Positions 20,149 to 51,619 are shown, counted from the first letter of the stretch. The stretch is DNA of 64,000 nucleotides from a virus (IMGVR_UViG_2974795854_000001:1-64000), one strand, 5' to 3'. Translations and numbers: made by a program. Notes: generated from the sequence alone by a model not told the origin.

Positions 20149-21480
20149 TTAATCTAATATTATAGCCCCAGTCATGTATAACTGAGTATTGTTTGGTAGG
20201 TCTGTTGCTAGTACCGCTAGTGAAGTGCTTCCTCCTATCTCTCTAAAAATAAAAGTGCCATCTCCGTTTATTGTACCGTGATACTGCTGATCCTTGAAGA
20301 GGCAGGTGAACACCTGATTATACTCTAGAAGTTCTCCATCTAAAAAGTCAAAACCAGATATAGAAAGTAGCCCTGCAGTTCCTCCGGTGTCAGAAGTGGT
20401 TAGAGTCTGTATATTAATTGTAAAATTAATAACTTTTCCCATTTTTACATAAGAGCCTAAGGAAGTACGTTGGGTATATGAATACCTTCCGCCAGAGTCT
20501 CCTAGAGTTGCAGTAAAGGTTCCAGTCTCCTGAGGAGATATATCATCAAGGTATGCTATTGTACCACTTCTATCTTGAAACGAGTGAATCCTGTTTGCTG
20601 AAAGCCCATCGAAATTTAGTGTTCCAGAGAACTTAATTCCACCGGGTTTGAAGGTAAACCCCTCTAACCCAGAACCAGTACCTACTGCTGAAAAGTAGCT
20701 GTGTGTAGTGGTGGTACTATTCGTTTGCAAGGATGTCGATGGATAAATAGTAATAAGTCCATCTGATCCTAACTTACCTACTCTAAGACCGCCGGTTATG
20801 TATACAGAACTATTTGCGGTTATAAGGTCGTCTGCTATTATATTCTTTGTCCTAACTACCCCATTGAAAGTTTTTGCAGCGTTTACTGTTTGAACTGTGT
20901 CTAATGTTACGTAGTTATCTTGTTGGAAATCTATTCCATCCTCGTCGTCGTTTACCTTTAATATCCAACCTTTTCTAAATGAGTAATCATCGGGAGTATC
21001 AGTCAGGCTTAAAAACGTAGAGGTAGACTCTCCGAATGTCAATCCAGTTCCTTGGGCATTTACCAATACTGACTTTCCGGCCTGTGCCACATAAGAAGAT
21101 GGAGTATCTGATAAACTTAAAAACTTAGATATTGCCTCTCCAAATACTACCCCATCCTCGTCGTCGTTTACTATTATCGACTTACCTGACTGACCTGTAA
21201 AAGTACTGGGAGTGTCTAATAAACTTAAAAATGAGGATGCTGATTCACCGAATATTAGGCCATCTTCGTCGTCATTTACTATTAAAGTTTTTCCAGACTG
21301 GCCTTCAAAACTATTAGGTGTATCTGGCAAACCTAAGAAACTATTCCTTAAGGCTATTATATCTCCAATCAGGTAGCTTCTAGTCCTTAGGTTATCTTGG
21401 CTATCTGTTCCTATTAAATAATCTTCCGGTGAAGGAGATGCATCATAGTCGTATATCTGTGTATTTTTTATTCTTGCCAT
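20149..21480 (-). CDS. tail fibre protein with about 36-aa repeats
   Basis: 4-5 repeats FLSL.DTP.(S/T)(F/Y).GQSGK...VNDDEDG..FGE; N-terminus shared with the 21951-24686 product. Confidence 0.75.
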   Translation of the reverse strand: MARIKNTQIYDYDASPSPEDYLIGTDSQDNLRTRSYLIGDIIALRNSFLGLPDTPNSFEGQSGKTLIVNDDEDGLIFGESASSFLSLLDTPSTFTGQSGKSIIVNDDEDGVVFGEAISKFLSLSDTPSSYVAQAGKSVLVNAQGTGLTFGESTSTFLSLTDTPDDYSFRKGWILKVNDDEDGIDFQQDNYVTLDTVQTVNAAKTFNGVVRTKNIIADDLITANSSVYITGGLRVGKLGSDGLITIYPSTSLQTNSTTTTHSYFSAVGTGSGLEGFTFKPGGIKFSGTLNFDGLSANRIHSFQDRSGTIAYLDDISPQETGTFTATLGDSGGRYSYTQRTSLGSYVKMGKVINFTINIQTLTTSDTGGTAGLLSISGFDFLDGELLEYNQVFTCLFKDQQYHGTINGDGTFIFREIGGSTSLAVLATDLPNNTQLYMTGAIILD

Positions 21481-30479: not shown

Positions 30480-30632
30480 ATGAGATATAAAGACTATAAA
30501 ATAGAAAGTAAGAAGAAGAGTAAGTTGGATTCTAAAAAAGAAGATTCGACTGCTCGAGTTTATAAACGAAAAAATAGCAAGGTGAAGGATGCCCTATCTT
30601 TTAAAATTAGGGGCAAATCCAAATTAGCCTAG
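30480..30632 (+). CDS. small basic peptide, 50 aa
   Basis: MRYKDYKIESKKKSK...KSKLA*; below the ORF-track cutoff; ends just before the bidirectional terminator. Confidence 0.35.
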   Translation: MRYKDYKIESKKKSKLDSKKEDSTARVYKRKNSKVKDALSFKIRGKSKLA

Positions 30633-30656
30633 CACCAACCACCAGTTGAAAACAAG

Positions 30657-30685
30657 AAAGCCACCTTTAATTAGATGGCTTTTTT
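30657..30685. terminator. bidirectional intrinsic terminator at the 3' end of the tRNA array
   Basis: AAAGCCA-CCTTTAATTAGA-TGGCTTTTTT. Confidence 0.7.
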
Positions 30686-30693
30686 CATTTAAG

Positions 30694-30765
30694 AACTTCT
30701 AGAGGGATTCGAACCCCCAATCTACCCGTTCGTAGCGGAGCGCTTTTCCGTTAAGCTATAGAAGT
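30694..30765 (-). tRNA. tRNA-Arg(ACG)
   Basis: Cloverleaf; loop CTACGAA; T-arm GGGGG-TTCGAAT-CCCTC. Confidence 0.9.
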
Positions 30766-30772
30766 GTGAAAG

Positions 30773-30855
30773 TGCATCCAGAGGGATTCGAACCCCCAAT
30801 CCTTTCGGCGACAGGTTTTAAGCCTGTAGTGTATAGCCATTTCCACCATGAATGC
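30773..30855 (-). tRNA. tRNA-Leu(TAA)
   Basis: ACAGG-CTTAAAA-CCTGT; extended variable region. Confidence 0.9.
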
Positions 30856-30864
30856 ATTAGTAAG

Positions 30865-30947
30865 TACCGGAAGAGGGATTCGAACCCTCAAAAGTCTAGG
30901 TTTCTAAAACCCAATGATCTACCATTCTCTTTTTTACTCACTCCGGT
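30865..30947 (-). tRNA. atypical tRNA-Leu(TAG)
   Basis: TGGGT-TTTAGAA-ACCTA and a good T-arm; expanded irregular D region, no long variable arm. Confidence 0.6.
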
Positions 30948-30982
30948 ATAAAAGGGGCGTGACATTATGACACCCCCTGTGT

Positions 30983-31059
30983 TGGACAACCGTATGGGAA
31001 TCGAACCCATGTAATCAGGTTCACAGCTTGACCGCCTTTCCAATTTGGCGCAACGGAGG
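30983..31059 (-). tRNA. atypical tRNA-His(GTG)
   Basis: Loop CTGTGAA and encoded CCA; acceptor stem has two mismatches and no G-1. Confidence 0.65.
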
Positions 31060-31070
31060 ACTCTTATAAG

Positions 31071-31142
31071 ATGGAGTACAGGGGCTCGAACCCCGACGAA
31101 CTGGCTCAAAACCAATCATGCTAACCATTACATCATACTCCA
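31071..31142 (-). tRNA. tRNA-Gln(TTG)
   Basis: ATTGG-TTTTGAG-CCAGT; TGGAGTA/TACTCCA acceptor. Confidence 0.9.
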
Positions 31143-31188
31143 ATGTCTAGTTTCTACTTTTTTGGGAGATACTAGTAAACAACCTTCG

Positions 31189-31263
31189 TACTATCGACGA
31201 GACTCGAACTCGCATTGCGCACCTTGAAAGGGTGGGTTCCTACTCCATTTAGAAGACGATAGC
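31189..31263 (-). tRNA. tRNA-Glu(TTC)
   Basis: Loop CTTTCAA; GCGAG-TTCGAGT-CTCGT. Confidence 0.85.
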
Positions 31264-31272
31264 AAATCAAAG

Positions 31273-31344
31273 TCGAGTAGGCAGGGATCGAACCTGCATT
31301 CTCCGACGTCCAAGGTCGGCACGTGCCAATTTTGTCACTACTCG
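31273..31344 (-). tRNA. tRNA-Pro(TGG)
   Basis: CCGAC-CTTGGAC-GTCGG; C1:G72. Confidence 0.9.
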
Positions 31345-31348
31345 AAAT

Positions 31349-31385
31349 AAAAAAAGCCCCAATGGTTTGTACCAAAGGGGCTCTT
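31349..31385 (-). terminator. intrinsic terminator/attenuator hairpin directly upstream of tRNA-Pro
   Basis: AGCCCC-TTTGGTACAAACCATT-GGGGCT-TTTTTT. Confidence 0.75.
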
Positions 31386-31408
31386 AATAGGATATTGTGC
31401 GTTGAAAA

Positions 31409-31498
31409 CTATGATAGTTCATCAATCCCATGATAAGACACCCTCGATGGTAATCGAAGTTGTTCTAAGGGCTCTTGATGTAATAGTCTTGCGTTCAT
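31409..31498 (-). CDS. putative leader peptide 1 (29 aa, MNARLLHQEPLEQLRLPSRVSYHGIDELS)
   Basis: ATG 4 nt after TATATTTA of promoter repeat 1; followed by a terminator and then tRNAs. Confidence 0.55.
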   Translation of the reverse strand: MNARLLHQEPLEQLRLPSRVSYHGIDELS

Positions 31499-31500
31499 AT

Positions 31501-31538
31501 TGTAAATATACAACTTTTTTTTGATATAAAAAAACTTA
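31501..31538 (-). repeat. 38-bp promoter repeat, copy 1
   Basis: TAAGTTTTTTTATATCAAAAAAAAGTTGTATATTTACA; identical to 32741-32778 and near-identical to 34336-34372. Confidence 0.85.
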
Positions 31539-31550
31539 TACTATTTTATT

Positions 31551-31844
31551 TTATGTTCTTGTTGGATTCTTCTTAACTCTCTTCTTTGCAGCAGCTAATT
31601 TCTTAGTATATGCACTCATACCTCCGGCCTTCTCTACGTCCTTCTTAAAGGCTGCAGATCTATTGGCGTCGTTACGACCTCTAGTTCCTCTAGCTTCTTC
31701 TTCTTTCTTAAGCTTGCCACTTGTCTTAACAGTGTACTTTTTAGCTTTAGTGTTTGCAACACCACTCTTATCAGATTTGATCGTTACGTTTTTCTTAGGT
31801 GCAGTTTTCTTAGTTGGCACCGTCTTTCTTGTAGTTCTTCTCAT
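31551..31844 (-). CDS. highly basic histone-like small protein
   Basis: Likely start MRRTTRKTVPTKKTAPKK at 31844; Lys/Arg/Ala/Thr-rich. Confidence 0.6.
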   Translation of the reverse strand: MRRTTRKTVPTKKTAPKKNVTIKSDKSGVANTKAKKYTVKTSGKLKKEEEARGTRGRNDANRSAAFKKDVEKAGGMSAYTKKLAAAKKRVKKNPTRT

Positions 31845-31895
31845 TGTTGTTTGTTTAACGTTAAGTAGTAAAGATACGAAAAATACAAACATAAG

Positions 31896-31967
31896 AATCG
31901 GAGACCGGAATTGAACCGGTATAGCACAGTTTTGCAGACAGGCCCCTTCTCCGTCAGGTTCTCCGAT
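31896..31967 (-). tRNA. tRNA-Cys(GCA), weak anticodon stem
   Basis: Loop CTGCAAA; perfect acceptor and T stems; anticodon stem mismatches. Confidence 0.7.
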
Positions 31968-31972
31968 ATAAG

Positions 31973-32045
31973 TGCGATAGGTAGGTTTCGATCCTACTCC
32001 TCTGGGGTTTCAAGCCAGTGCTTCTACCAAGTTAGCTTCTACCGC
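31973..32045 (-). tRNA. tRNA-Phe(GAA)
   Basis: Loop TTGAAAC with a C31:C39 mismatch; T-loop ATCGAAA. Confidence 0.75.
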
Positions 32046-32125
32046 ATTAAAAAACAACAGCCAAGACCTTCTCTCGGATTTTATGGCGGCTCCTTTACAT
32101 TATAGGATGCTCTGTTGTTTTATCG

Positions 32126-32194
32126 CGCGCACCCAAAGAATCGAACTCTGTCCTACGGGGTTGGAATCCGTTTGGCCACCATGGCCTGATGCGC
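32126..32194 (-). tRNA. tRNA-Trp(CCA)
   Basis: Loop TTCCAAC; GCGCATC/GGTGCGC acceptor; short D loop. Confidence 0.8.
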
Positions 32195-32201
32195 ATTAAA
32201 G

Positions 32202-32273
32202 AGGCTAGGGAGAATTACGATATCTCGACCTGACGCTTAACAGGCGCCTGCTCTTCCTCTGAGCTACCTAGCC
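32202..32273 (-). tRNA. tRNA-Asn(GTT), atypical T-loop
   Basis: GGCGC-CTGTTAA-GCGTC; canonical D arm; T-loop ATCGTAA. Confidence 0.75.
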
Positions 32274-32282
32274 GTGTGTTTG

Positions 32283-32367
32283 TAGAGAAGAAGGGATTCG
32301 AACCCTCGGAGGCGTTAACCCCACTACTTTAGCAAAGTAGCACCTTAAGCCACTCAGACACCTCTCT
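32283..32367 (-). tRNA. tRNA-Ser(GCT)
   Basis: CTACT-TTGCTAA-AGTAG; long variable arm. Confidence 0.9.
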
Positions 32368-32372
32368 AAATG

Positions 32373-32462
32373 TGGAAGAAGTGGGGCTCGAACCCACACG
32401 GGCTTTTAAACCCCAACTGTTTTCAAGACAGCGACCCGTAGACCTACTTGGCTTACCCTTCC
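32373..32462 (-). tRNA. tRNA-Ser(TGA)
   Basis: GCTGT-CTTGAAA-ACAGT; long variable arm. Confidence 0.88.
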
Positions 32463-32469
32463 ATTATTG

Positions 32470-32551
32470 TTGCACCGTGCGGAATCGAACCACTCCCCTC
32501 TCAAGAACTGTTTTACAGACAGCCTGCTAGAACCACTAGCTTTACGTTGCA
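32470..32551 (-). tRNA. tRNA-Tyr(GTA)
   Basis: GCTGT-CTGTAAA-ACAGT; one acceptor mismatch. Confidence 0.82.
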
Positions 32552-32564
32552 AGTTATAAAAAAC

Positions 32565-32599
32565 AAAAAACCCTCTTAGCTACGAAAGACCAAGAGGGT
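32565..32599 (-). terminator. intrinsic terminator/attenuator hairpin upstream of tRNA-Tyr
   Basis: ACCCTCTT-GGTCTTTCGTAGCT-AAGAGGGT-TTTTT. Confidence 0.75.
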
Positions 32600-32648
32600 A
32601 AAAATCAAAATTAATAATCAAAAATTAATAAAAGAAATGAATATATTT

Positions 32649-32738
32649 TTAAGACAAGTACAACCTCTCGACATTATAGCTACTAAAGCTACAATTCGAA
32701 TACCAAGAGAAATTATTGTATGTCATGTTTGTTTTCAT
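32649..32738 (-). CDS. putative leader peptide 2 (29 aa, MKTNMTYNNFSWYSNCSFSSYNVERLYLS)
   Basis: Same geometry as leader 1; rich in Tyr/Ser/Asn/Phe with Trp and Cys. Confidence 0.55.
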   Translation of the reverse strand: MKTNMTYNNFSWYSNCSFSSYNVERLYLS

Positions 32739-32740
32739 AT

Positions 32741-32778
32741 TGTAAATATACAACTTTTTTTTGATATAAAAAAACTTA
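32741..32778 (-). repeat. 38-bp promoter repeat, copy 2
   Basis: Identical to 31501-31538. Confidence 0.85.
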
Positions 32779-32800
32779 CATCATTTTATTTTAAAAATAG

Positions 32801-32870
32801 TTGGAATAGAGGGAATCGAACCCATCTCCACACGCATATAAGACGTGCTAACCTACCTAGGCTTACTCCA
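32801..32870 (-). tRNA. tRNA-Ile(TAT), atypical
   Basis: CACGT-CTTATAT-GCGTG; short D arm and imperfect T stem. Confidence 0.65.
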
Positions 32871-32992
32871 ATAAAGATCTTGTGGTCACTATATCCACAT
32901 CACACGCTGTTTTAAGGTTTATCTCTGTTACCAAAGAATGCAGGCATACGTGTTACCTAAAAGCCTATAAGTGTTTTTCACTAAGATCCAAG

Positions 32993-33063
32993 AACCTCTA
33001 CAGGGATTCGAACCCCGATCATAGCGGTAGAAGCGCCGTATTTTTCCATTAAACTATAGAGGC
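32993..33063 (-). tRNA. tRNA-Arg(TCT)
   Basis: Loop CTTCTAC; CGGGG-TTCGAAT-CCCTG. Confidence 0.85.
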
Positions 33064-33124
33064 AAAAAAGACCTACCCTTGGACACTTTGAGACGTTCTC
33101 CTAGAAGTGTGGTAGGTACTGTTG

Positions 33125-33198
33125 TACCAAATGACAGATTCGAACTATCGACCTTCTCCTTGTAAAAGAGCTGCTCTAAACCACTGAGCTAATCTGGT
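33125..33198 (-). tRNA. tRNA-Val(TAC)
   Basis: Loop TTTACAA; canonical D arm GCTC-AGTGGTTTA-GAGC. Confidence 0.85.
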
Positions 33199-33300
33199 AT
33201 ATGGTAGGCATGTTACTACACCTACTTTTTTGTTTTTAACGTGGAGAAGCTTATTTCCATAACTCAAAACTCCATTACAATACTTTTAACCTAATAAATA

Positions 33301-33348
33301 AAAAGGGGCTCTTGTTCACGATATCTAGTATTCGCTAAGCCCCCTTTT
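33301..33348. terminator. large-loop terminator-like hairpin inside the tRNA array
   Basis: AAAAGGGGCT...AGCCCCCTTTT. Confidence 0.5.
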
Positions 33349-33408
33349 CAAAAAAACACTTAATCTAATGCGCTTCAAAACTTCTCGAGAGGCGGATTAA
33401 GTCTGTTG

Positions 33409-33482
33409 AGCACTAATCAGGGATCGAACCCGAATTATCTTCGTTACAAATGAAGTACCATTTCCTATTCAGTCATTAGTGC
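33409..33482 (-). tRNA. tRNA-Thr(TGT)
   Basis: CTTCA-TTTGTAA-CGAAG; GCACTAA/TTAGTGC acceptor. Confidence 0.8.
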
Positions 33483-33492
33483 ATAATTAAAG

Positions 33493-33569
33493 CGGTCTAA
33501 GAGGGATTCGAACCCTCGTTTTAGAGCAGTGACAGTGCAATTCGTGTTACCAAACACGCTTATTAGACC
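33493..33569 (-). tRNA. tRNA-Asp(GTC), weak anticodon stem
   Basis: Loop CTGTCAC; perfect acceptor and T stems. Confidence 0.75.
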
Positions 33570-33644
33570 AGTTGGCAGATGTCGATTAACTGCCGAGTGT
33601 CGTACGAACACCCTTTATCCCGAAGAGTGTAGAAACGACTTTTG

Positions 33645-33713
33645 TGGCGGGTATGGGAGTCGAACCCATCTATAAGGACTTATGAGGCCCTCCGGTCACC
33701 ACGACCACCCACA
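33645..33713 (-). tRNA. tRNA with CAT anticodon (Met or Ile2)
   Basis: AGGGC-CTCATAA-GTCCT; U1:C72 mismatch; short D arm; lacks the three G:C pairs of initiator tRNA. Confidence 0.75.
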
Positions 33714-33723
33714 ATTTTAAAAG

Positions 33724-33796
33724 AGCGTAAGACGAGGTTCGAACTCGCTATCTCCTACTTGGAAGGCAGGCGCCATTCCACTATGGCCTCTTACGC
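33724..33796 (-). tRNA. tRNA-Gly(TCC)
   Basis: CCTGC-CTTCCAA-GTAGG. Confidence 0.9.
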
Positions 33797-33884
33797 AAAT
33801 TCCTCTTTTTATAGAGTTGAGGTAAAAACATTCTCTTAGTCCAACTTTTTTCCTTTTTCTTTCTTTCGGTAGTCTTCCGCCTCG

Positions 33885-33957
33885 TTGGAATAGAAGGTTT
33901 CGAACCTACGACCTCTCCCGTATCAGGGGAGTGCTCTAACCGCTGAGCTATACTCCA
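33885..33957 (-). tRNA. tRNA-Ile(GAT)
   Basis: CTCCC-CTGATAC-GGGAG; canonical D arm. Confidence 0.9.
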
Positions 33958-34006
33958 ATATTACCTTATTCGCTTATAATCCATTATATAAGCTAATTTA
34001 CTTATG

Positions 34007-34079
34007 TGCCCCTGCTAGGAATCGAACCTAGCCCCACTGTTTAAAAGACAGTTGCCTACAACCTGTTTGCTACAAGGGC
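34007..34079 (-). tRNA. tRNA-Lys(TTT)
   Basis: ACTGT-CTTTTAA-ACAGT. Confidence 0.88.
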
Positions 34080-34107
34080 AATTTGGTGTCAGTAAGGGAT
34101 CTTATTG

Positions 34108-34182
34108 TGGAACTCATGGGTATCGAACCCATCTCACTCTGATTGCAAATCAAAGTCGCCTTGCCTTGGTTCATGCAGCCCC
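34108..34182 (-). tRNA. tRNA-Ala(TGC)
   Basis: Loop TTTGCAA; G3:U70 identity pair; irregular D arm. Confidence 0.78.
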
Positions 34183-34183
34183 A

Positions 34184-34214
34184 ATAAAAAACCCTCCTTT
34201 TTAGGGGAGGGCTG
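34184..34214 (-). terminator. intrinsic terminator/attenuator hairpin immediately upstream of tRNA-Ala
   Basis: CCCTCC-CCTAAAAA-GGAGGG-TTTTT. Confidence 0.75.
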
Positions 34215-34240
34215 TAATAAATATCTTATATCTAAAGAAA

Positions 34241-34318
34241 TTATAGTACACGGCTCCTCCCCAAGAGTTTCACTCCCTTGGTTCTAATATCTGTCGCTAT
34301 GTTCATAATTGTTTTCAT
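34241..34318 (-). CDS. putative leader peptide 3 (25 aa, MKTIMNIATDIRTKGVKLLGRSRVL)
   Basis: Between promoter repeat copy 3 and the terminator; MKT.M start shared with leader 2. Confidence 0.5.
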   Translation of the reverse strand: MKTIMNIATDIRTKGVKLLGRSRVL

Positions 34319-34335
34319 CGATCTTATTGCTTTGA

Positions 34336-34372
34336 TACAAATATACAACTTTTTTTGATATAAAAAAACTTA
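34336..34372 (-). repeat. promoter repeat, copy 3 (with consensus TATATTTG)
   Basis: Near-identical to copies 1 and 2, with one T fewer and TTTG instead of TTTA. Confidence 0.85.
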
Positions 34373-34390
34373 CTTGTAAATAATTCTGTT

Positions 34391-34537
34391 TTAGATGTCT
34401 TTTCCGGTTTTTTCTTCAATCTTTCGCTCCAACTCGTCTGCAGCACTATTGAAATATGCCTGTAATTTAGGGTTGTTCTTCAAGATTAATGCGAAACCTG
34501 CCGCTCCGGCCAATACTCCTACTAAAAATGTAATCAT
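34391..34537 (-). CDS. small membrane protein, 48 aa (YtxH-like N-terminus)
   Basis: MITFLVGVLAGAAGFALILK...; -7 element TATATTTG at 34565-34572. Confidence 0.6.
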   Translation of the reverse strand: MITFLVGVLAGAAGFALILKNNPKLQAYFNSAADELERKIEEKTGKDI

Positions 34538-37287: not shown

Positions 37288-37374
37288 ATATGGTAATTTT
37301 TGGTAACACCTTGAGTCGGCTCTTGGTGGGTGGTTCGATTCCACTAATTGCCCCTAATTTTAAAACAGTAAGAT

Positions 37375-37488
37375 ATGGAACTTGCAAAAAAAGTATTCGT
37401 AAATGTATTAGTGGTTATTATAGTAATAACTGCATTAAGTTTATTGGTCGCTATCTTATCAGGAGCAGTAAACACATCAAATCTTTAA
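37375..37488 (+). CDS. small TM peptide, 37 aa
   Basis: MELAKKVFVNVLVVIIVITALSLLVAILSG... Confidence 0.45.
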   Translation: MELAKKVFVNVLVVIIVITALSLLVAILSGAVNTSNL

Positions 37489-38960: not shown

Positions 38961-39032
38961 GCTCTTTTCGTCTAGCGGTAAGGACATTCGGTTTTCATCC
39001 GAAAAACATAGGTTCGAATCCTATAGAGAGTA
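38961..39032 (+). tRNA. tRNA-Glu(TTC), copy A
   Basis: TTCGG-TTTTCAT-CCGAA; ATAGG-TTCGAAT-CCTAT. Confidence 0.88.
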
Positions 39033-39052
39033 CTAATATTAAAATTTAAGAG

Positions 39053-39541
39053 ATGTTAAAAGTAAAAGCAGAAATCGGAAGGTCTAAAGAAGACATGATA
39101 AAATTGTTGAACGAGACTGCCCAATACTACTCCGAGGATTTGAGTAGAAGGGGTACTAAATCAGGCCCTATAAGTGGGTGCGTGTACAAGTCCGATAAAG
39201 GAAGTATGTGCGCTGTAGGTAGATGTATGGTAGATGAAGCACCTTTTGAAGAGTTTAACTTACAAGGGAGCATCGGATCACTAGCTATCCTCAACGGCGT
39301 TAACCCCCGAACTAAAGAAGGTGCTGAAAGGGTAGACGCTTTTCTTAAAGATGAGTATAAGGGTTACCCTGTATCATTTTGGGAATGCCTGCAAGAGTTC
39401 CACGACGGAGAACAATATTGGGTAGTAGGTGCAGACGGCGATGAAAATGGAAGTATGGAGAACGTATTAGAAAGAAGGTTGCTTAAAATAAGAGCTATAA
39501 AGAATAATATACTCTTTGGTAAATATAAAATACAAAGTTAA
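39053..39541 (+). CDS. hypothetical protein, paralog family A copy 2
   Basis: YYSEDLSRRG...MCAVGRCM. Confidence 0.75.
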   Translation: MLKVKAEIGRSKEDMIKLLNETAQYYSEDLSRRGTKSGPISGCVYKSDKGSMCAVGRCMVDEAPFEEFNLQGSIGSLAILNGVNPRTKEGAERVDAFLKDEYKGYPVSFWECLQEFHDGEQYWVVGADGDENGSMENVLERRLLKIRAIKNNILFGKYKIQS

Positions 39542-41413: not shown

Positions 41414-41485
41414 GCTCTTTTCGTCTAGCGGTAAGGACATTCGGTTTTCATCCGAAAAACATAGGTTCGAATCCTATAGAGAGTA
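41414..41485 (+). tRNA. tRNA-Glu(TTC), copy B, identical to copy A
   Basis: 72/72 nt identical to 38961-39032. Confidence 0.88.
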
Positions 41486-41505
41486 CTAATTAATACAAAC
41501 TAGTC

Positions 41506-42949: not shown

Positions 42950-43308
42950 GGGGGCGACTGGTTTTGACAGGGTATAACAGTCGTTAATGTTCAGCGCAGA
43001 GAGATAACTGCACAAACTAAGGTGAAATTCTTTAAACGGAAACAACACGAATGCGGTAAACGCACAGATCGAAGCTAATATGGAAGCGGTAAACGCTATC
43101 CTTAACCTTGAAGTAGCAGTAGGGGTATAAGCTGACCGTTTTATCTGTTTTCTCAAAACAGTTTGGTGGAGCTTCAATCATAACTATGGTTGGCCCCTCT
43201 AGCATAAAGAGTCTAAAGAAATGCCGTGTGTAACGATACTACACAAAAGCTGTATAAAACATTGACGATTAAGTGCTCTGGACGAGGGTTCGATTCCCTC
43301 CGCCTCCA
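42950..43308 (+). ncRNA. ssrA: tmRNA (SsrA)
   Basis: 5' GGGGGCG-ACTGGTTTTGACAG pairs with 3' CGCCTCC-A including G3:U70; T-arm GAGGG-TTCGATT-CCCTC; tag ORF 43038-43130 after TTAAAC. Confidence 0.92.
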
Positions 43309-43331
43309 CTAATAATCATAAAACAATAAAG

Positions 43332-43817
43332 ATGTCAAAAACTATTTACGAAAAAGATAGCAGGTTATACCATTTAGGTTATCCATTAGGGGCTGTACTT
43401 AGTGAATCTCTAAACACTCTTAAATCGATGGCTAAAATAGTAAATGCCGAGTTTAGTAAGAGCAAGTTAAATAGGATGAACATATTCTGTATGGGATCTT
43501 CTGGGGCTATAACAGCCGCCATAATATTGAATGAAATATCTAAAGAAAATAATGATATCTATATCATACACGTAAAGAAAGACGGAGAAAAGTCTCACAG
43601 TAGTAGAGTAGACTGTAAAAACAATGCATTCAATATAATAGTAGATGATTTTGTAGAGTCCGGAAAGACTATAGAGAAAGTCTACAAGAATGCAATCAGA
43701 AGGTCTAATGTATCTAAGATAGATTTAGTAATCTTTAGCGGAGATGTTACACAAGACTTTGCAGATTGGATAGATTGGGATAAACCATTAATTAGTAAAG
43801 TAATAAGCAAGTATTAA
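43332..43817 (+). CDS. type I phosphoribosyltransferase-like protein
   Basis: PRPP-binding loop IIVDDFVESGKT; CMGSSGAITA. Confidence 0.8.
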   Translation: MSKTIYEKDSRLYHLGYPLGAVLSESLNTLKSMAKIVNAEFSKSKLNRMNIFCMGSSGAITAAIILNEISKENNDIYIIHVKKDGEKSHSSRVDCKNNAFNIIVDDFVESGKTIEKVYKNAIRRSNVSKIDLVIFSGDVTQDFADWIDWDKPLISKVISKY

Positions 43818-48876: not shown

Positions 48877-49284
48877 ATGGCAAAAATTAAAGTAGACAAG
48901 ACGAAAACACCAACTATCTTAGAACACCTAGGATACACGGACGAGGAGGCAGTTGAGGTATTAACTAGATCTCAGAAGTTCATAGCAAGTAAGATAGACA
49001 TCTTGCTTCAAGACACAAGCAACTTAGATACGACAGATATCTTCAACGACTTCCACTTAGACTTCGATGAAAAAGAGAGAGATTTAGTCTTGTGCCAGTT
49101 ATTAGCATCTATGACAGAGCAGGGTTTGATGGCCGCTGCAAGAGAGAAAGAGATTATGGGAGCTATGCAGCTACTAGTTGGAGACGAGGTTGTAGACATA
49201 GACGCCAATGGAGGGGTAAGCTTCGTATCGCCTTCAAAAAAAGGTTGTGATAAAGGAGATTGTGACGACTGCGGTTGTGACTAA
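48877..49284 (+). CDS. hypothetical protein with Cys-rich tail
   Basis: C-terminus GCDKGDCDDCGCD. Confidence 0.6.
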   Translation: MAKIKVDKTKTPTILEHLGYTDEEAVEVLTRSQKFIASKIDILLQDTSNLDTTDIFNDFHLDFDEKERDLVLCQLLASMTEQGLMAAAREKEIMGAMQLLVGDEVVDIDANGGVSFVSPSKKGCDKGDCDDCGCD

Positions 49285-49294
49285 TTAAAAAGAC

Positions 49295-49436
49295 TTCCTT
49301 AGAAGACAGATGGTTATAGTCTATGATTAAGGCCGAAGTACAAGGCTTTATAGAAATGTAAACTGAGCCTGCTTATAACGAGATATATAGTTATGAGTAG
49401 GCTTTTACACGGAGGTTCGAATCCTCCCTAAGGAAC
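49295..49436 (+). ncRNA. tRNA-like RNA with the anticodon arm replaced by two helices
   Basis: Acceptor TTCCTTAG/CTAAGGAA, D arm GAC-AGATGGTTATA-GTC, T arm GGAGG-TTCGAAT-CCTCC; 14-bp helix 49366-49403. Confidence 0.7.
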
Positions 49437-49462
49437 AATATAAATCAATTAAATCAATAAGA

Positions 49463-50866
49463 ATGGTAACAGGAAACACTCTGATTAAATTAGGGTACAA
49501 GCCAAGTAAATGGTTTGGAGAAGCTATTGACGAGCTTAATGCCCAAGAGAAACAATTTCTAAAAATATTAGGCAGAAAGTTAACGGATGACGAAATAATA
49601 TTTTCGTGTAATAAGTACTTACCTCCCCCAACTATAGGACTACATAAAGATCCTGTGAGTTACACTATCAACATTTTACCAACCAACGAAAAGGAGCGAA
49701 ACAATGTAGATTTAGTAAAGATGTCCATGGACAGCTTGATGAAGACTCCTACAATTGTAGACGGAACTATAATGCCGGATGCATGCCCCACGGGGAAGTT
49801 AGGGCAGATACCAGTAGGTTCTGTAGTAGTAACTAAGAACGCAATCCACCCCGGTTTTCATTCAGCAGATATTTGCTGCTCTGTGTACGCCACGGAGTTT
49901 GCCGAAGGAGTTAAACCAAAGGATGTCATGGATATTGCATTTGAGACGACTCAATTTGGCCCCGGAGGTAGGAGAGGATTAGGAGGTTGGTCATCTATAT
50001 TAGATGGAGAGTCTCTACTTACAAGTAGAATAGAAGAAAACTACTTCACTAAAGATTACATAGAGAAGGCTAGGATGCACATGGGAACACAAGGAGATGG
50101 TAACCATTTCTTATTCGTAGGAGTGTCAGAAGCTACCGGAAGAACGATGATGGTAACGCACCATGGGTCTAGAGGATTCGGTTCTAGTGTCTATAAAAAA
50201 GGGATGCATACTGCAGAGAGATTTAGAAAGCAATTAAGCCCTAAAACAGCCCCGATGAATGCTTGGATACCTTTTGAAGAAAAGGAGGGAGAATTGTACT
50301 GGGAGGCCTTGCAGATACTAAGAGACTGGACTAAATTAAACCACTCTTCTATACACAATAGGGTAGCAAACAAATTGAAGACTACTCCAATAAGATCTTT
50401 TTGGAATGAGCACAATTTTGTATTCAAGGACGGAGATAAGTTCTACCATGCCAAAGGCGCAACTCCTTTAGATGACAAGTTTGTACCGGATTCTACGGAG
50501 GGCCTAAGGCTAATACCTTTAAACATGGCAGAGCCTATACTAGTAGTAAAAGGAAAAACTACAAGAACTAACTTAGGATTTGCTCCACACGGTGCAGGTA
50601 GAAATGTAAGTAGGGCAGCACATAAGAGAAGTTTATCAGCCAAGAGCAACCCTCAGATATTCAAAGACGAGACTGCAGGCCTAGACATAAGATTCTTCTC
50701 AGGAGAGATAGATATCTCTGAGTTGCCATCCGCTTATAAGAACGCAGATACAGTACAAGACCAAATGGAGAGTTTTGGACTAGGAGACGTATTAGATAAG
50801 ATAATGCCTTACGGAAGTATAATGGCAGGTGATTACGACAGATTTAAACCTTGGAAAAAGAAATAA
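49463..50866 (+). CDS. rtcB: RtcB family RNA ligase
   Basis: MPDACP, SADICC, HMGTQGDGNHF, VTHHGSRG, WNEHN, YHAKGATP, APHGAGR, ELPSAYK. Confidence 0.93.
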   Translation: MVTGNTLIKLGYKPSKWFGEAIDELNAQEKQFLKILGRKLTDDEIIFSCNKYLPPPTIGLHKDPVSYTINILPTNEKERNNVDLVKMSMDSLMKTPTIVDGTIMPDACPTGKLGQIPVGSVVVTKNAIHPGFHSADICCSVYATEFAEGVKPKDVMDIAFETTQFGPGGRRGLGGWSSILDGESLLTSRIEENYFTKDYIEKARMHMGTQGDGNHFLFVGVSEATGRTMMVTHHGSRGFGSSVYKKGMHTAERFRKQLSPKTAPMNAWIPFEEKEGELYWEALQILRDWTKLNHSSIHNRVANKLKTTPIRSFWNEHNFVFKDGDKFYHAKGATPLDDKFVPDSTEGLRLIPLNMAEPILVVKGKTTRTNLGFAPHGAGRNVSRAAHKRSLSAKSNPQIFKDETAGLDIRFFSGEIDISELPSAYKNADTVQDQMESFGLGDVLDKIMPYGSIMAGDYDRFKPWKKK

Positions 50867-50881
50867 TAAAACACTATCAAC

Positions 50882-51619
50882 ATGAAACAAATAATAAAAA
50901 AAGCGAGTAGATTAGCATCATTTTTAGCAAGAGGTAGGTCAGGAGGACTAACATCGGAGGACAGTAAGAAGTTTATGGAGTCTCTTTTAAGGGATTACTC
51001 AGATGCATTAGACAAAGACCCTGATAAATTGACAGAAGCTATAGGTAAATTAATGGCGTTCTCTATCACCATGGCATGCTCTAAAAACTTAGACGATAGA
51101 ATAATGGTTTTAATAGAAGAGTCTCAAGATTCTTTAGAGAGTATGATGCACAGAGGTTCAATCTTAAGGTCAGAAGACAACGGGCTATTGAGAGGCGTAG
51201 ATTATATGCCTTTAAATATGCTTAAGGTAAACAACAGGATTAGTGGGTCGGAAGTAGATACGTATATAAAAAAGGTGTTTGGGGATGCAAAAGTAGTAAA
51301 CTGCATGCTTAACTCTATACCTGTCACCCTAAACGACGATAATGTAGTAAAAGGATCGTCAGGATATTGGTCTCAATCGAAGATAGGTGTTTTAAGAGCT
51401 AAGTTAATGACTAAAGAAGGCACTATGGCCGAGGTTATCGAGTTCAAAGATAATAAAGACCCTTATATTTCAATCTTACTAGATAGGGAATTAATCTCTA
51501 GGAGTGAGTCTCAAAGATACCTTGAAGGAGACCTAGAGACTATAAACTCTTTAAAGGGTATCAGAAGAGCAGTAAAAGAAGAAATATACAAAGCGGCATA
51601 TAGCTACTATAATCTTTAA
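50882..51619 (+). CDS. hypothetical protein
   Basis: 245 aa; ATG 1 nt after AACACTATCAA. Confidence 0.65.
   Translation: MKQIIKKASRLASFLARGRSGGLTSEDSKKFMESLLRDYSDALDKDPDKLTEAIGKLMAFSITMACSKNLDDRIMVLIEESQDSLESMMHRGSILRSEDNGLLRGVDYMPLNMLKVNNRISGSEVDTYIKKVFGDAKVVNCMLNSIPVTLNDDNVVKGSSGYWSQSKIGVLRAKLMTKEGTMAEVIEFKDNKDPYISILLDRELISRSESQRYLEGDLETINSLKGIRRAVKEEIYKAAYSYYNL

Follow-up and report, generated by a model that had tools for sequence, protein, structure and literature searches.

A conserved, unannotated tRNA-shaped RNA gene directly upstream of rtcB in a relative of Cellulophaga phage phi38:1

We analyzed a 64,000-nt stretch of viral DNA (IMGVR_UViG_2974795854_000001:1-64000, hereafter the window), together with the complete genome record of the same phage, which is 72,979 nt long (~73 kb). 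This marine phage is a close relative of Cellulophaga phage phi38:1, a Callevirus and 72.5-kb podovirus of C. baltica. The locus under study comprises a 142-nt element, which contains no ORF of at least 40 aa on either strand, a short spacer and the gene rtcB:

49295-49436, plus strand: whole tRNA-like RNA gene, with U(-1) at 49295, the body at 49296-49435 and C74 at 49436
49296-49302, plus strand: 5' strand of the acceptor stem, UCCUUAG, pairing with 49428-49434 (pair probability 0.96-1.0) and invariant in both alleles
49304-49322, plus strand: D arm, stem AGAC/GUCU or GAC/GUC, with G18 G19 in the loop
49323-49356, plus strand: anticodon-arm substitute, made up of the linker AUGAU, hairpin H1 and the linker UAGAAA
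49357-49409, plus strand: helix H2 at the variable-arm position, with base UGUAAA/UUUACA, ~20 bp, bulged, loop GAGAUAUAUA, and a top-helix probability of 0.99-1.0
49411-49427, plus strand: T arm GGAGG-UUCGAAU-CCUCC, separated from H2 by the single base C49410 and stacking directly on the acceptor stem
49437-49462, plus strand: A/U-rich 26-nt spacer, invariant between alleles
49463-50866, plus strand: rtcB, encoding a 3'-phosphate/5'-hydroxyl RNA ligase of 467 aa (Pfam and PHROG)

The ATG of rtcB at 49463 lies 26 nt after position 49436, at the distance originally predicted. Its product matched the Pfam RtcB family (1.8e-33) and the PHROG tRNA splicing ligase (5.7e-108). The RtcB motifs DICC, GNHF, HHGSRG and PHGAGR could be aligned to P. 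horikoshii RtcB, and the catalytic motifs are intact. Directly upstream of the element, the ORF at 48877-49284 (plus strand) is a homologue of phi38:1 gp031 with a Cys-rich C-terminus; it differs from the phi38:1 protein at 25/135 residues, with changes at all codon positions, and the neighboring genes are far less diverged. The ORF following rtcB (50882-51619) had no relatives outside these phages and yielded no Atlas lead, and its AlphaFold model was unusable (pLDDT 37). For the other neighboring ORFs, Pfam and PHROGs gave no match. A sigma-70 and terminator scan, complemented by inspection for Bacteroidota promoter motifs by eye, detected no promoter or terminator of the element's own on either side of it.

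The original prediction described an RNA with a perfect acceptor, a D arm with GG and a perfect T arm in which a hairpin and a long helix take the place of the anticodon arm, and both the sequence and the minimum free energy (MFE) fold confirmed every one of these features at its coordinates. The acceptor is formed by TTCCTTAG (49295-49302) and CTAAGGAA (49428-49435). Instead of the 8-bp acceptor originally described, we read a regular stem of 7 bp, with C3-G70 as its third pair, plus U(-1) facing the discriminator A73 (49435). The D arm (49304-49322) is present and carries GG at 49312-13. H1 is a 7-bp hairpin (49328-49350) with the 9-nt loop GAAGUACAA, the exact centre of which is GUA (chance 1 in 64). 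H2 (49357-49409) consists of 5-6 bp, a 3-nt bulge, 14-15 bp and a 10-nt loop. It ends one base before the T stem, which is the place of the variable arm in class-II tRNAs, whose long variable arms sit directly before the T stem. The T arm (GGAGG-TTCGAAT-CCTCC) is perfect.

The predicted fold was far more stable than expected for its composition, with an MFE of -51.2 kcal/mol versus -28.0 +/- 3.7 for 200 shuffles (z = -6.3, 0/200 as good). The phi38:1 allele had the same layout (z = -4.4 versus shuffles). Ensemble pairing was near certain for the acceptor stem, the core of H1, the top of H2 and the T arm. The D stem reached a probability of only ~0.41, its competitor being a UCUAU/AUAGA extension of H1 (~0.44). 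The real tRNAs of the phage encode N73-C-(A/U), without CCA, and the 3' trailer of the element, A-C-A-A (A73-C74...), matches theirs, so its ends look like those of an RNA matured by the tRNA pathway. A 12-codon ORF (MIKAEVQGFIEM, 49323-49361, plus strand) spans H1 and has its UAA stop in the H2 base; it is probably due to chance, though the phage may use leader peptides elsewhere.

We compared the element to known RNA families. The Rfam tRNA model (RF00005) aligned to it end to end, with model positions 1-71 distributed over 49296-49435 and a 79-nt insert at the anticodon arm, at 22.7 bits versus a gathering cut-off of 29 (local E = 0.016). The element shares with canonical tRNAs the 7-bp acceptor with discriminator, G18 G19 in the D loop and the UUCGAAU-type T loop; an anticodon arm of 5 bp with a loop of 7 nt is missing between its D arm and variable region. 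ARAGORN did not call it at the default threshold, with or without intron mode; a tRNA-Ile(AAU) intron model with a 57-nt intron appeared only at the 80% threshold and was judged unconvincing. The isotype could not be read from the D arm, which was not discriminating, and no other tRNA of this phage was a close enough match to suggest an origin by duplication. An in-house scan for acceptor, T and D arms (candidates of 96-300 nt) returned the element as the only site in the 73-kb genome, and three sites in 890 kb of other phage loci.

Several other identities were rejected. The tmRNA model (RF00023) scored 14.2 bits, with a cut-off of 47 bits, and covered H2 and the T arm only. The element has C3-G70, not G3-U70, and a full D arm, and contains neither a tag reading frame nor pseudoknots; the true tmRNA of the phage is a separate gene. 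A group I intron was dismissed on size, as its core needs ~200 nt or more and the putative inserts of the element measure 28 and 40 nt, and there was no Rfam intron match. Apart from the sub-threshold tRNA match, other Rfam families gave chance matches only. Complementarity of the phage genome to the H1 and H2 loops, taken as a sign of antisense targets, was at chance level.

An analogy to YrlA and Ro60 had also been drawn in the original prediction. In the Salmonella rsr-yrlBA-rtcBA operon, the tRNA-like YrlA lies directly upstream of rtcB (PMC4201824), and the element likewise precedes rtcB, so it could be imagined as a bacterial-type, YrlA-like Y RNA working with Ro60 and RtcB. This is very improbable: the YrlA covariance model (RF02553) gave no match on the element even at E <= 10, TROVE/Ro60 (PF05731) is absent from the complete 73-kb genome while control genomes gave matches, and the element ends in an acceptor stem and has no Ro-binding stem. 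The analogy did not hold.

The distribution of the element was narrow. A blastn search of 50,697 phage records with a 451-nt query around the element matched phi38:1 and phi40:1 only (94.4% identity). In phi38:1 (NC_021796), its site (20677-20818, minus strand) is an unannotated gap with gp031 and gp030 ("tRNA splicing ligase") on either side; six non-coding RNAs of phi38:1 are listed in a supplement of PMC5335546. Two exact-pattern scans of IMG/VR recovered phi38:1 only, and the 90% RtcB cluster led to one extra contig (TARA), identical to phi38:1. Just two alleles (n = 2) were therefore available, that of this phage and that of phi38:1, the latter corresponding to the phi40:1 match and the TARA contig.

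RtcB-anchored searches covered 80 viral and 80 metagenome loci (~155 other rtcB loci), with RtcB proteins 42-63% identical. No homologue turned up in any of them (0 of ~155), whether with a covariance model built on the element or with our own arm scan, and partnership with RtcB as a general rule, which had been suggested for this RNA, was not supported. One locus (L004) has a 133-nt gap before rtcB that is unrelated to the element.

Selection on the element was estimated from the two alleles, which differ at 9/142 positions. Four-fold sites of three better-conserved flanking genes served as the neutral reference, with 36/271 differing (13.3%). Divergence of the element was about half the four-fold-site rate (binomial p = 0.006), indicating constraint. 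No substitution fell in 49323-49365, comprising H1, both linkers and the H2 base (0/43, p = 0.002), and the H2 top changed at approximately the neutral rate (5/38). The H2 changes include one U-A to C-G double change and two wobble-compatible changes, with one end-pair broken; the T stem has a single G-C to G-U change in phi38:1. When nine substitutions were placed at random, at most one broken pair together with at least six substitutions in stems occurred in 1.4% of trials, and the simulated p-value for the pair-keeping of the H2 changes was ~0.01-0.04. The other differences lie at positions 8, 14, and 15 (D-arm region). They are not disqualifying, since A8 is present in several real tRNAs of the phage and its real tRNAs are 93-100% identical between the two phages. 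Covariation support is thin because only two alleles exist.

The element thus has a tRNA-like fold, is conserved, and evolves under purifying and pair-preserving selection. It is a real, selected, unannotated tRNA-derived RNA gene. The tRNA-shaped RNA that had been predicted was borne out, as a conserved RNA that no tRNA finder calls and that is unannotated in phi38:1.

Degenerate tRNA-like pieces and real tRNA-type genes of the phage lie 20-27 nt before start codons on the same strand:

37292-37352, plus strand: mini tRNA-like piece of 61 nt, with a 7-bp acceptor and the T arm GGTGG-TTCGATT-CCACT, 22 nt before the ATG at 37375
38961-39033 and 41414-41486, plus strand: two identical copies of tRNA-Glu(UUC), ending 20-21 nt before the ORFs at 39053 and 41506
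42950-43311, plus strand: tmRNA, ending 20-21 nt before the ORF start at 43332
54371-54441, plus strand: CAU-type tRNA relic with anticodon loop CUCAUAA, ~20 nt before a calcineurin-like phosphoesterase gene (54462-55193)

The piece at 37292-37352 is 87% identical in phi38:1, where its T loop is changed. The one at 54371-54441, called by neither ARAGORN nor Rfam, has the anticodon CAC in phi38:1 and differs at three further positions, and therefore looks like a decaying tRNA. By the same token, the element could be a decaying tRNA gene with hairpin insertions, kept only as a cis-acting signal for RNase P and 3' processing. It would then punctuate the polycistronic RNA and set the 5' end of the rtcB message, and the RNA itself, once released, would be functionless. 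The missing flanking promoter and terminator fit this explanation, and t-elements offer a precedent for tRNA-like signals at mRNA ends (PMC1920247). The spacing may reflect punctuation of rightward transcripts or simply the dense packing of the genes: intergenic gaps of 11-24 nt are usual in this genome, and a distance of 20-27 nt does not stand out. A processing signal needs only the minihelix of acceptor and T arm, yet the 43 nt around H1 are invariant, H2 pairs were kept through a double change, and the whole element diverges at half the four-fold-site rate. We consider a mere processing relic improbable.

The tRNA set of the phage bears on the main alternative. Its tRNAs cover 18 amino acids, a count that combines ARAGORN calls with Phe and Cys tRNAs from Rfam and sub-threshold Ile-UAU and Leu-UAG candidates. 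Tyr and Ala alone are missing, and ARAGORN and Rfam detected no tRNA-Tyr or tRNA-Ala elsewhere in the genome. Tyr makes up 4.5% of the phage codons, with TAC preferred. The tRNA region occupies 30600-34400 of the window (minus strand). Phe(GAA) at 31973-32045 and Cys(GCA) at 31896-31967 (minus strand) were missed by ARAGORN and score above the Rfam cut-off; the sub-threshold candidates, also on the minus strand, are Ile(UAU)-like at 32801-32870 (23 bits) and Leu(UAG)-like at 30866-30947 (21 bits). tRNA-Trp(CCA) at 32125-32194 (minus strand) had no blastn counterpart in the stretch of phi38:1 compared, where a small CDS, gp068, is annotated. The block of Ser-Ser-Asn-Trp-Phe-Cys tRNAs is preceded by a tRNA-operon leader peptide, MKTNMTYNNFSWYSNCSFSSYNVERLYLS (32649-32738, minus strand), which contains four Tyr codons.

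It is possible, though on balance unlikely, that the element is the missing tRNA-Tyr(GUA) gene of the phage, interrupted by hairpin inserts. The anticodon arm would be concealed in the following half-arm:

49351-49362, plus strand: candidate hidden anticodon half-arm UAGAA-AUGUAAA, able to pair with UUUUA at 49403-49407 once 49363-49402 is gone

The 40-nt hairpin 49363-49402, which coincides with the canonical 37/38 site or adjoins it, would be cut out by a putative protein endonuclease. The H1 block of 28 nt (49323-49350) would either share this fate or persist at the 26/27 junction as an extra arm. RtcB from the neighboring gene would then seal the exons into a 72-nt (or 100-nt) tRNA with the anticodon loop A-U-GUA-A-A. 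After deletion of 49323-49350 and 49363-49402, the resulting 72-nt cloverleaf was called by ARAGORN as tRNA-Tyr(gta) at 98% of the default threshold, not at the default itself. Among 5000 dinucleotide shuffles of the middle region, any hidden arm was found in 29%, an arm for a missing amino acid in 7% and one with GUA in 1.5%; the corresponding p-values (0.015-0.07) are suggestive, though post hoc. Both inserts are built alike, as a short 5' tail followed by a perfect hairpin. RtcB is the tRNA-splicing ligase of archaea and animals, and a sealing ligase of this type, with its catalytic motifs intact, is at hand 26 nt downstream. The highly conserved, unexplained tRNA-Tyr(GTA) introns of Lak megaphages provide a precedent (PMC6784885), and two of the other rtcB loci have tRNAs bearing 36-46-nt inserts.

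These observations are offset by others. Such splicing would call for excision at two places, or else for an extra arm that has no precedent. A bulge-helix-bulge motif is absent, the 5' junction being the only one located at a 3-nt bulge. Archease and an EndA-type endonuclease (PF01974) are absent from the phage. The product would have a 3-nt variable loop and an anticodon stem without a G-C pair, besides remaining below the default threshold of ARAGORN. The proposed anticodon stem has a probability of about zero in the precursor because UGUAAA pairs with the 3' exon. No uninterrupted allele that would define the borders of the inserts was found with the IMG/VR patterns or in the RtcB cluster, and the invariance of H1 would be unexpected for a passive intron. 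That the element is a functional tRNA-Tyr(GUA) gene whose hairpin inserts are excised by proteins and whose exons are rejoined by the RtcB encoded 26 nt downstream is rather unlikely in our estimation.

Of the two insert-bearing tRNAs at other rtcB loci, one lies in a marine metagenome contig (ORXR01016519; L142:1952-2070). This 119-nt tRNA, scoring 50.6 bits with Rfam, has ~46 extra nt and sits 200 nt after the rtcB homologue. ARAGORN in intron mode assigned it the anticodon UCA, and its insert is partly flanked by the 7-nt direct repeat CCAGGTC. In IMGVR_UViG_3300010218_000007 (L051:1131-1245), a tRNA-Leu(UAG) has a 36-nt insert in the anticodon (ARAGORN default, 30 bits with Rfam). The tRNA array to which it belongs also contains a permuted tmRNA (387-592, 111 bits) and lies 1.8 kb upstream of rtcB.

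The reading we prefer, with a probability of roughly 0.4, is that the element encodes a phage tRNA look-alike without decoding function. Its outer tRNA frame is intact, the anticodon arm is replaced by the over-long H1, and the ~20-bp H2 fills the variable-arm position. H1 cannot decode because it places 7 bp and a 9-nt loop where the anticodon arm would be. The unspliced RNA is laid out like a class-II tRNA, and all of its helices are well formed. From the arrangement of the locus, we infer the processing, stability and target of such a mimic as follows. The element, having no promoter or terminator beside it, would be transcribed within a rightward polycistronic RNA and excised by RNase P and 3' tRNA-processing enzymes, as for the real tRNAs of the phage. 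The same cut would free the rtcB message, of which 49437-49462 would form the 26-nt leader. CCA would then be added to the excised RNA. Once free, the RNA would act as a tRNA mimic, most likely a tRNA-Tyr-like one, and might serve as bait for, or partner of, a tRNA-recognizing factor such as a host tRNA-cutting defence, alongside RtcB. Our guess would be that, as a tRNA(Tyr)-like bait or partner, it takes part in a tRNA-cleavage conflict to which RtcB responds.

Some results weigh on the non-decoding mimic as well. Covariation from two alleles is thin, and none of the other phages examined shows the element linked to rtcB. The hidden canonical Tyr loop AUGUAAA with its matching 5-bp stem is better explained by a split tRNA. 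Homology to the T5 and T4 RNAs discussed below is limited to the T loop.

To our knowledge, self-splicing group I introns are the only tRNA introns established in viruses of bacteria, and the short non-ribozyme inserts of phage tRNA genes have lacked an explanation since 2019. Phage tRNA-like stable RNAs such as T4 species 1 and T5 RNA1 have been known since the 1970s, without a function. The element occurs immediately ahead of an intact RNA ligase gene in a cultured, transcriptome-profiled model phage (phi38:1 on Cellulophaga baltica; strand-specific RNA-seq in PMC5335546), and both of these open questions can therefore be tested by ordinary experiments. If it were a split tRNA-Tyr, it would represent protein-dependent tRNA splicing in a bacterial virus and make phi38:1 on C. 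baltica a cultivable test system for the "enigmatic" phage tRNA introns. Should it be a mimic instead, it would offer a handle on the binding targets of phage tRNA-like stable RNAs.

Several known systems resemble the element in part. Like YrlA, which precedes rtcB in Salmonella, it has a tRNA-mimicking D arm, T arm and acceptor-like stem; the ends of YrlA RNA form a Ro-binding stem, and its tRNA-like module is distal (Chen et al. 2014, PMC4201824). With tmRNA it shares the acceptor stem and T arm, and a long helix leaving on the variable-arm side. The t-elements of plant mitochondria are tRNA-like processing signals of mRNA ends (PMC1920247). Similarly, the element lies between genes of a presumed polycistronic transcript, as a tRNA-shaped structure at which RNase P and RNase Z could cut. 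The analogy concerns function alone, and the conserved extra helices of the element would be unneeded in that role.

Lak megaphages of Prevotella (Bacteroidota) carry "enigmatic", highly conserved introns in tRNA-Tyr(GTA) and other tRNAs (Devoto et al. 2019, PMC6784885, Table S6); we found no mention of RtcB in that paper. There, too, a phage of a Bacteroidota host has an oversized tRNA-Tyr-like gene with an insert far below group I intron size that is conserved between strains; the likeness of the element to this intron type would hold if its hairpin 49363-49402 is an intron. In the Lak tRNA-Tyr, a single 93-nt insert directly follows the anticodon, and its removal yields a sequence that scores as a tRNA (PMC6784885). 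The element, by comparison, would need two excisions unless an extra arm is retained; its cloverleaf is weaker, and no uninterrupted allele of it was found.

Two phage RNAs resemble the element in size and form. T5 RNA1 (AY543070, 30501-30644) is 144 nt long and annotated as a "tRNA-like stable RNA with unknown functions". T4 species 1 RNA (rnaC, NC_000866, 70908-71046) is 139 nt long, and its T arm is preceded by long extra helices. All three are ~140-nt phage RNAs with tRNA ends and extra helices that replace or accompany the anticodon arm, and T5 RNA1 gave the same kind of sub-threshold, insert-bearing Rfam tRNA match as the element (24.0 versus 22.7 bits). Only the T loop aligned in sequence comparisons of the element with T5 RNA1 and T4 rnaC. 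T5 RNA1 has its enlarged domain at the anticodon position and a short variable arm, whereas in the element it is the variable-arm position that holds the largest helix. Both the T4 and the T5 RNA belong to tRNA clusters; the element lies 15 kb from the tRNA array, directly before rtcB. As those RNAs have no known function, the analogy gives no mechanism. The element is a variant of known but unexplained kinds, either the tRNA-like stable RNAs of phages or their enigmatic tRNA introns.
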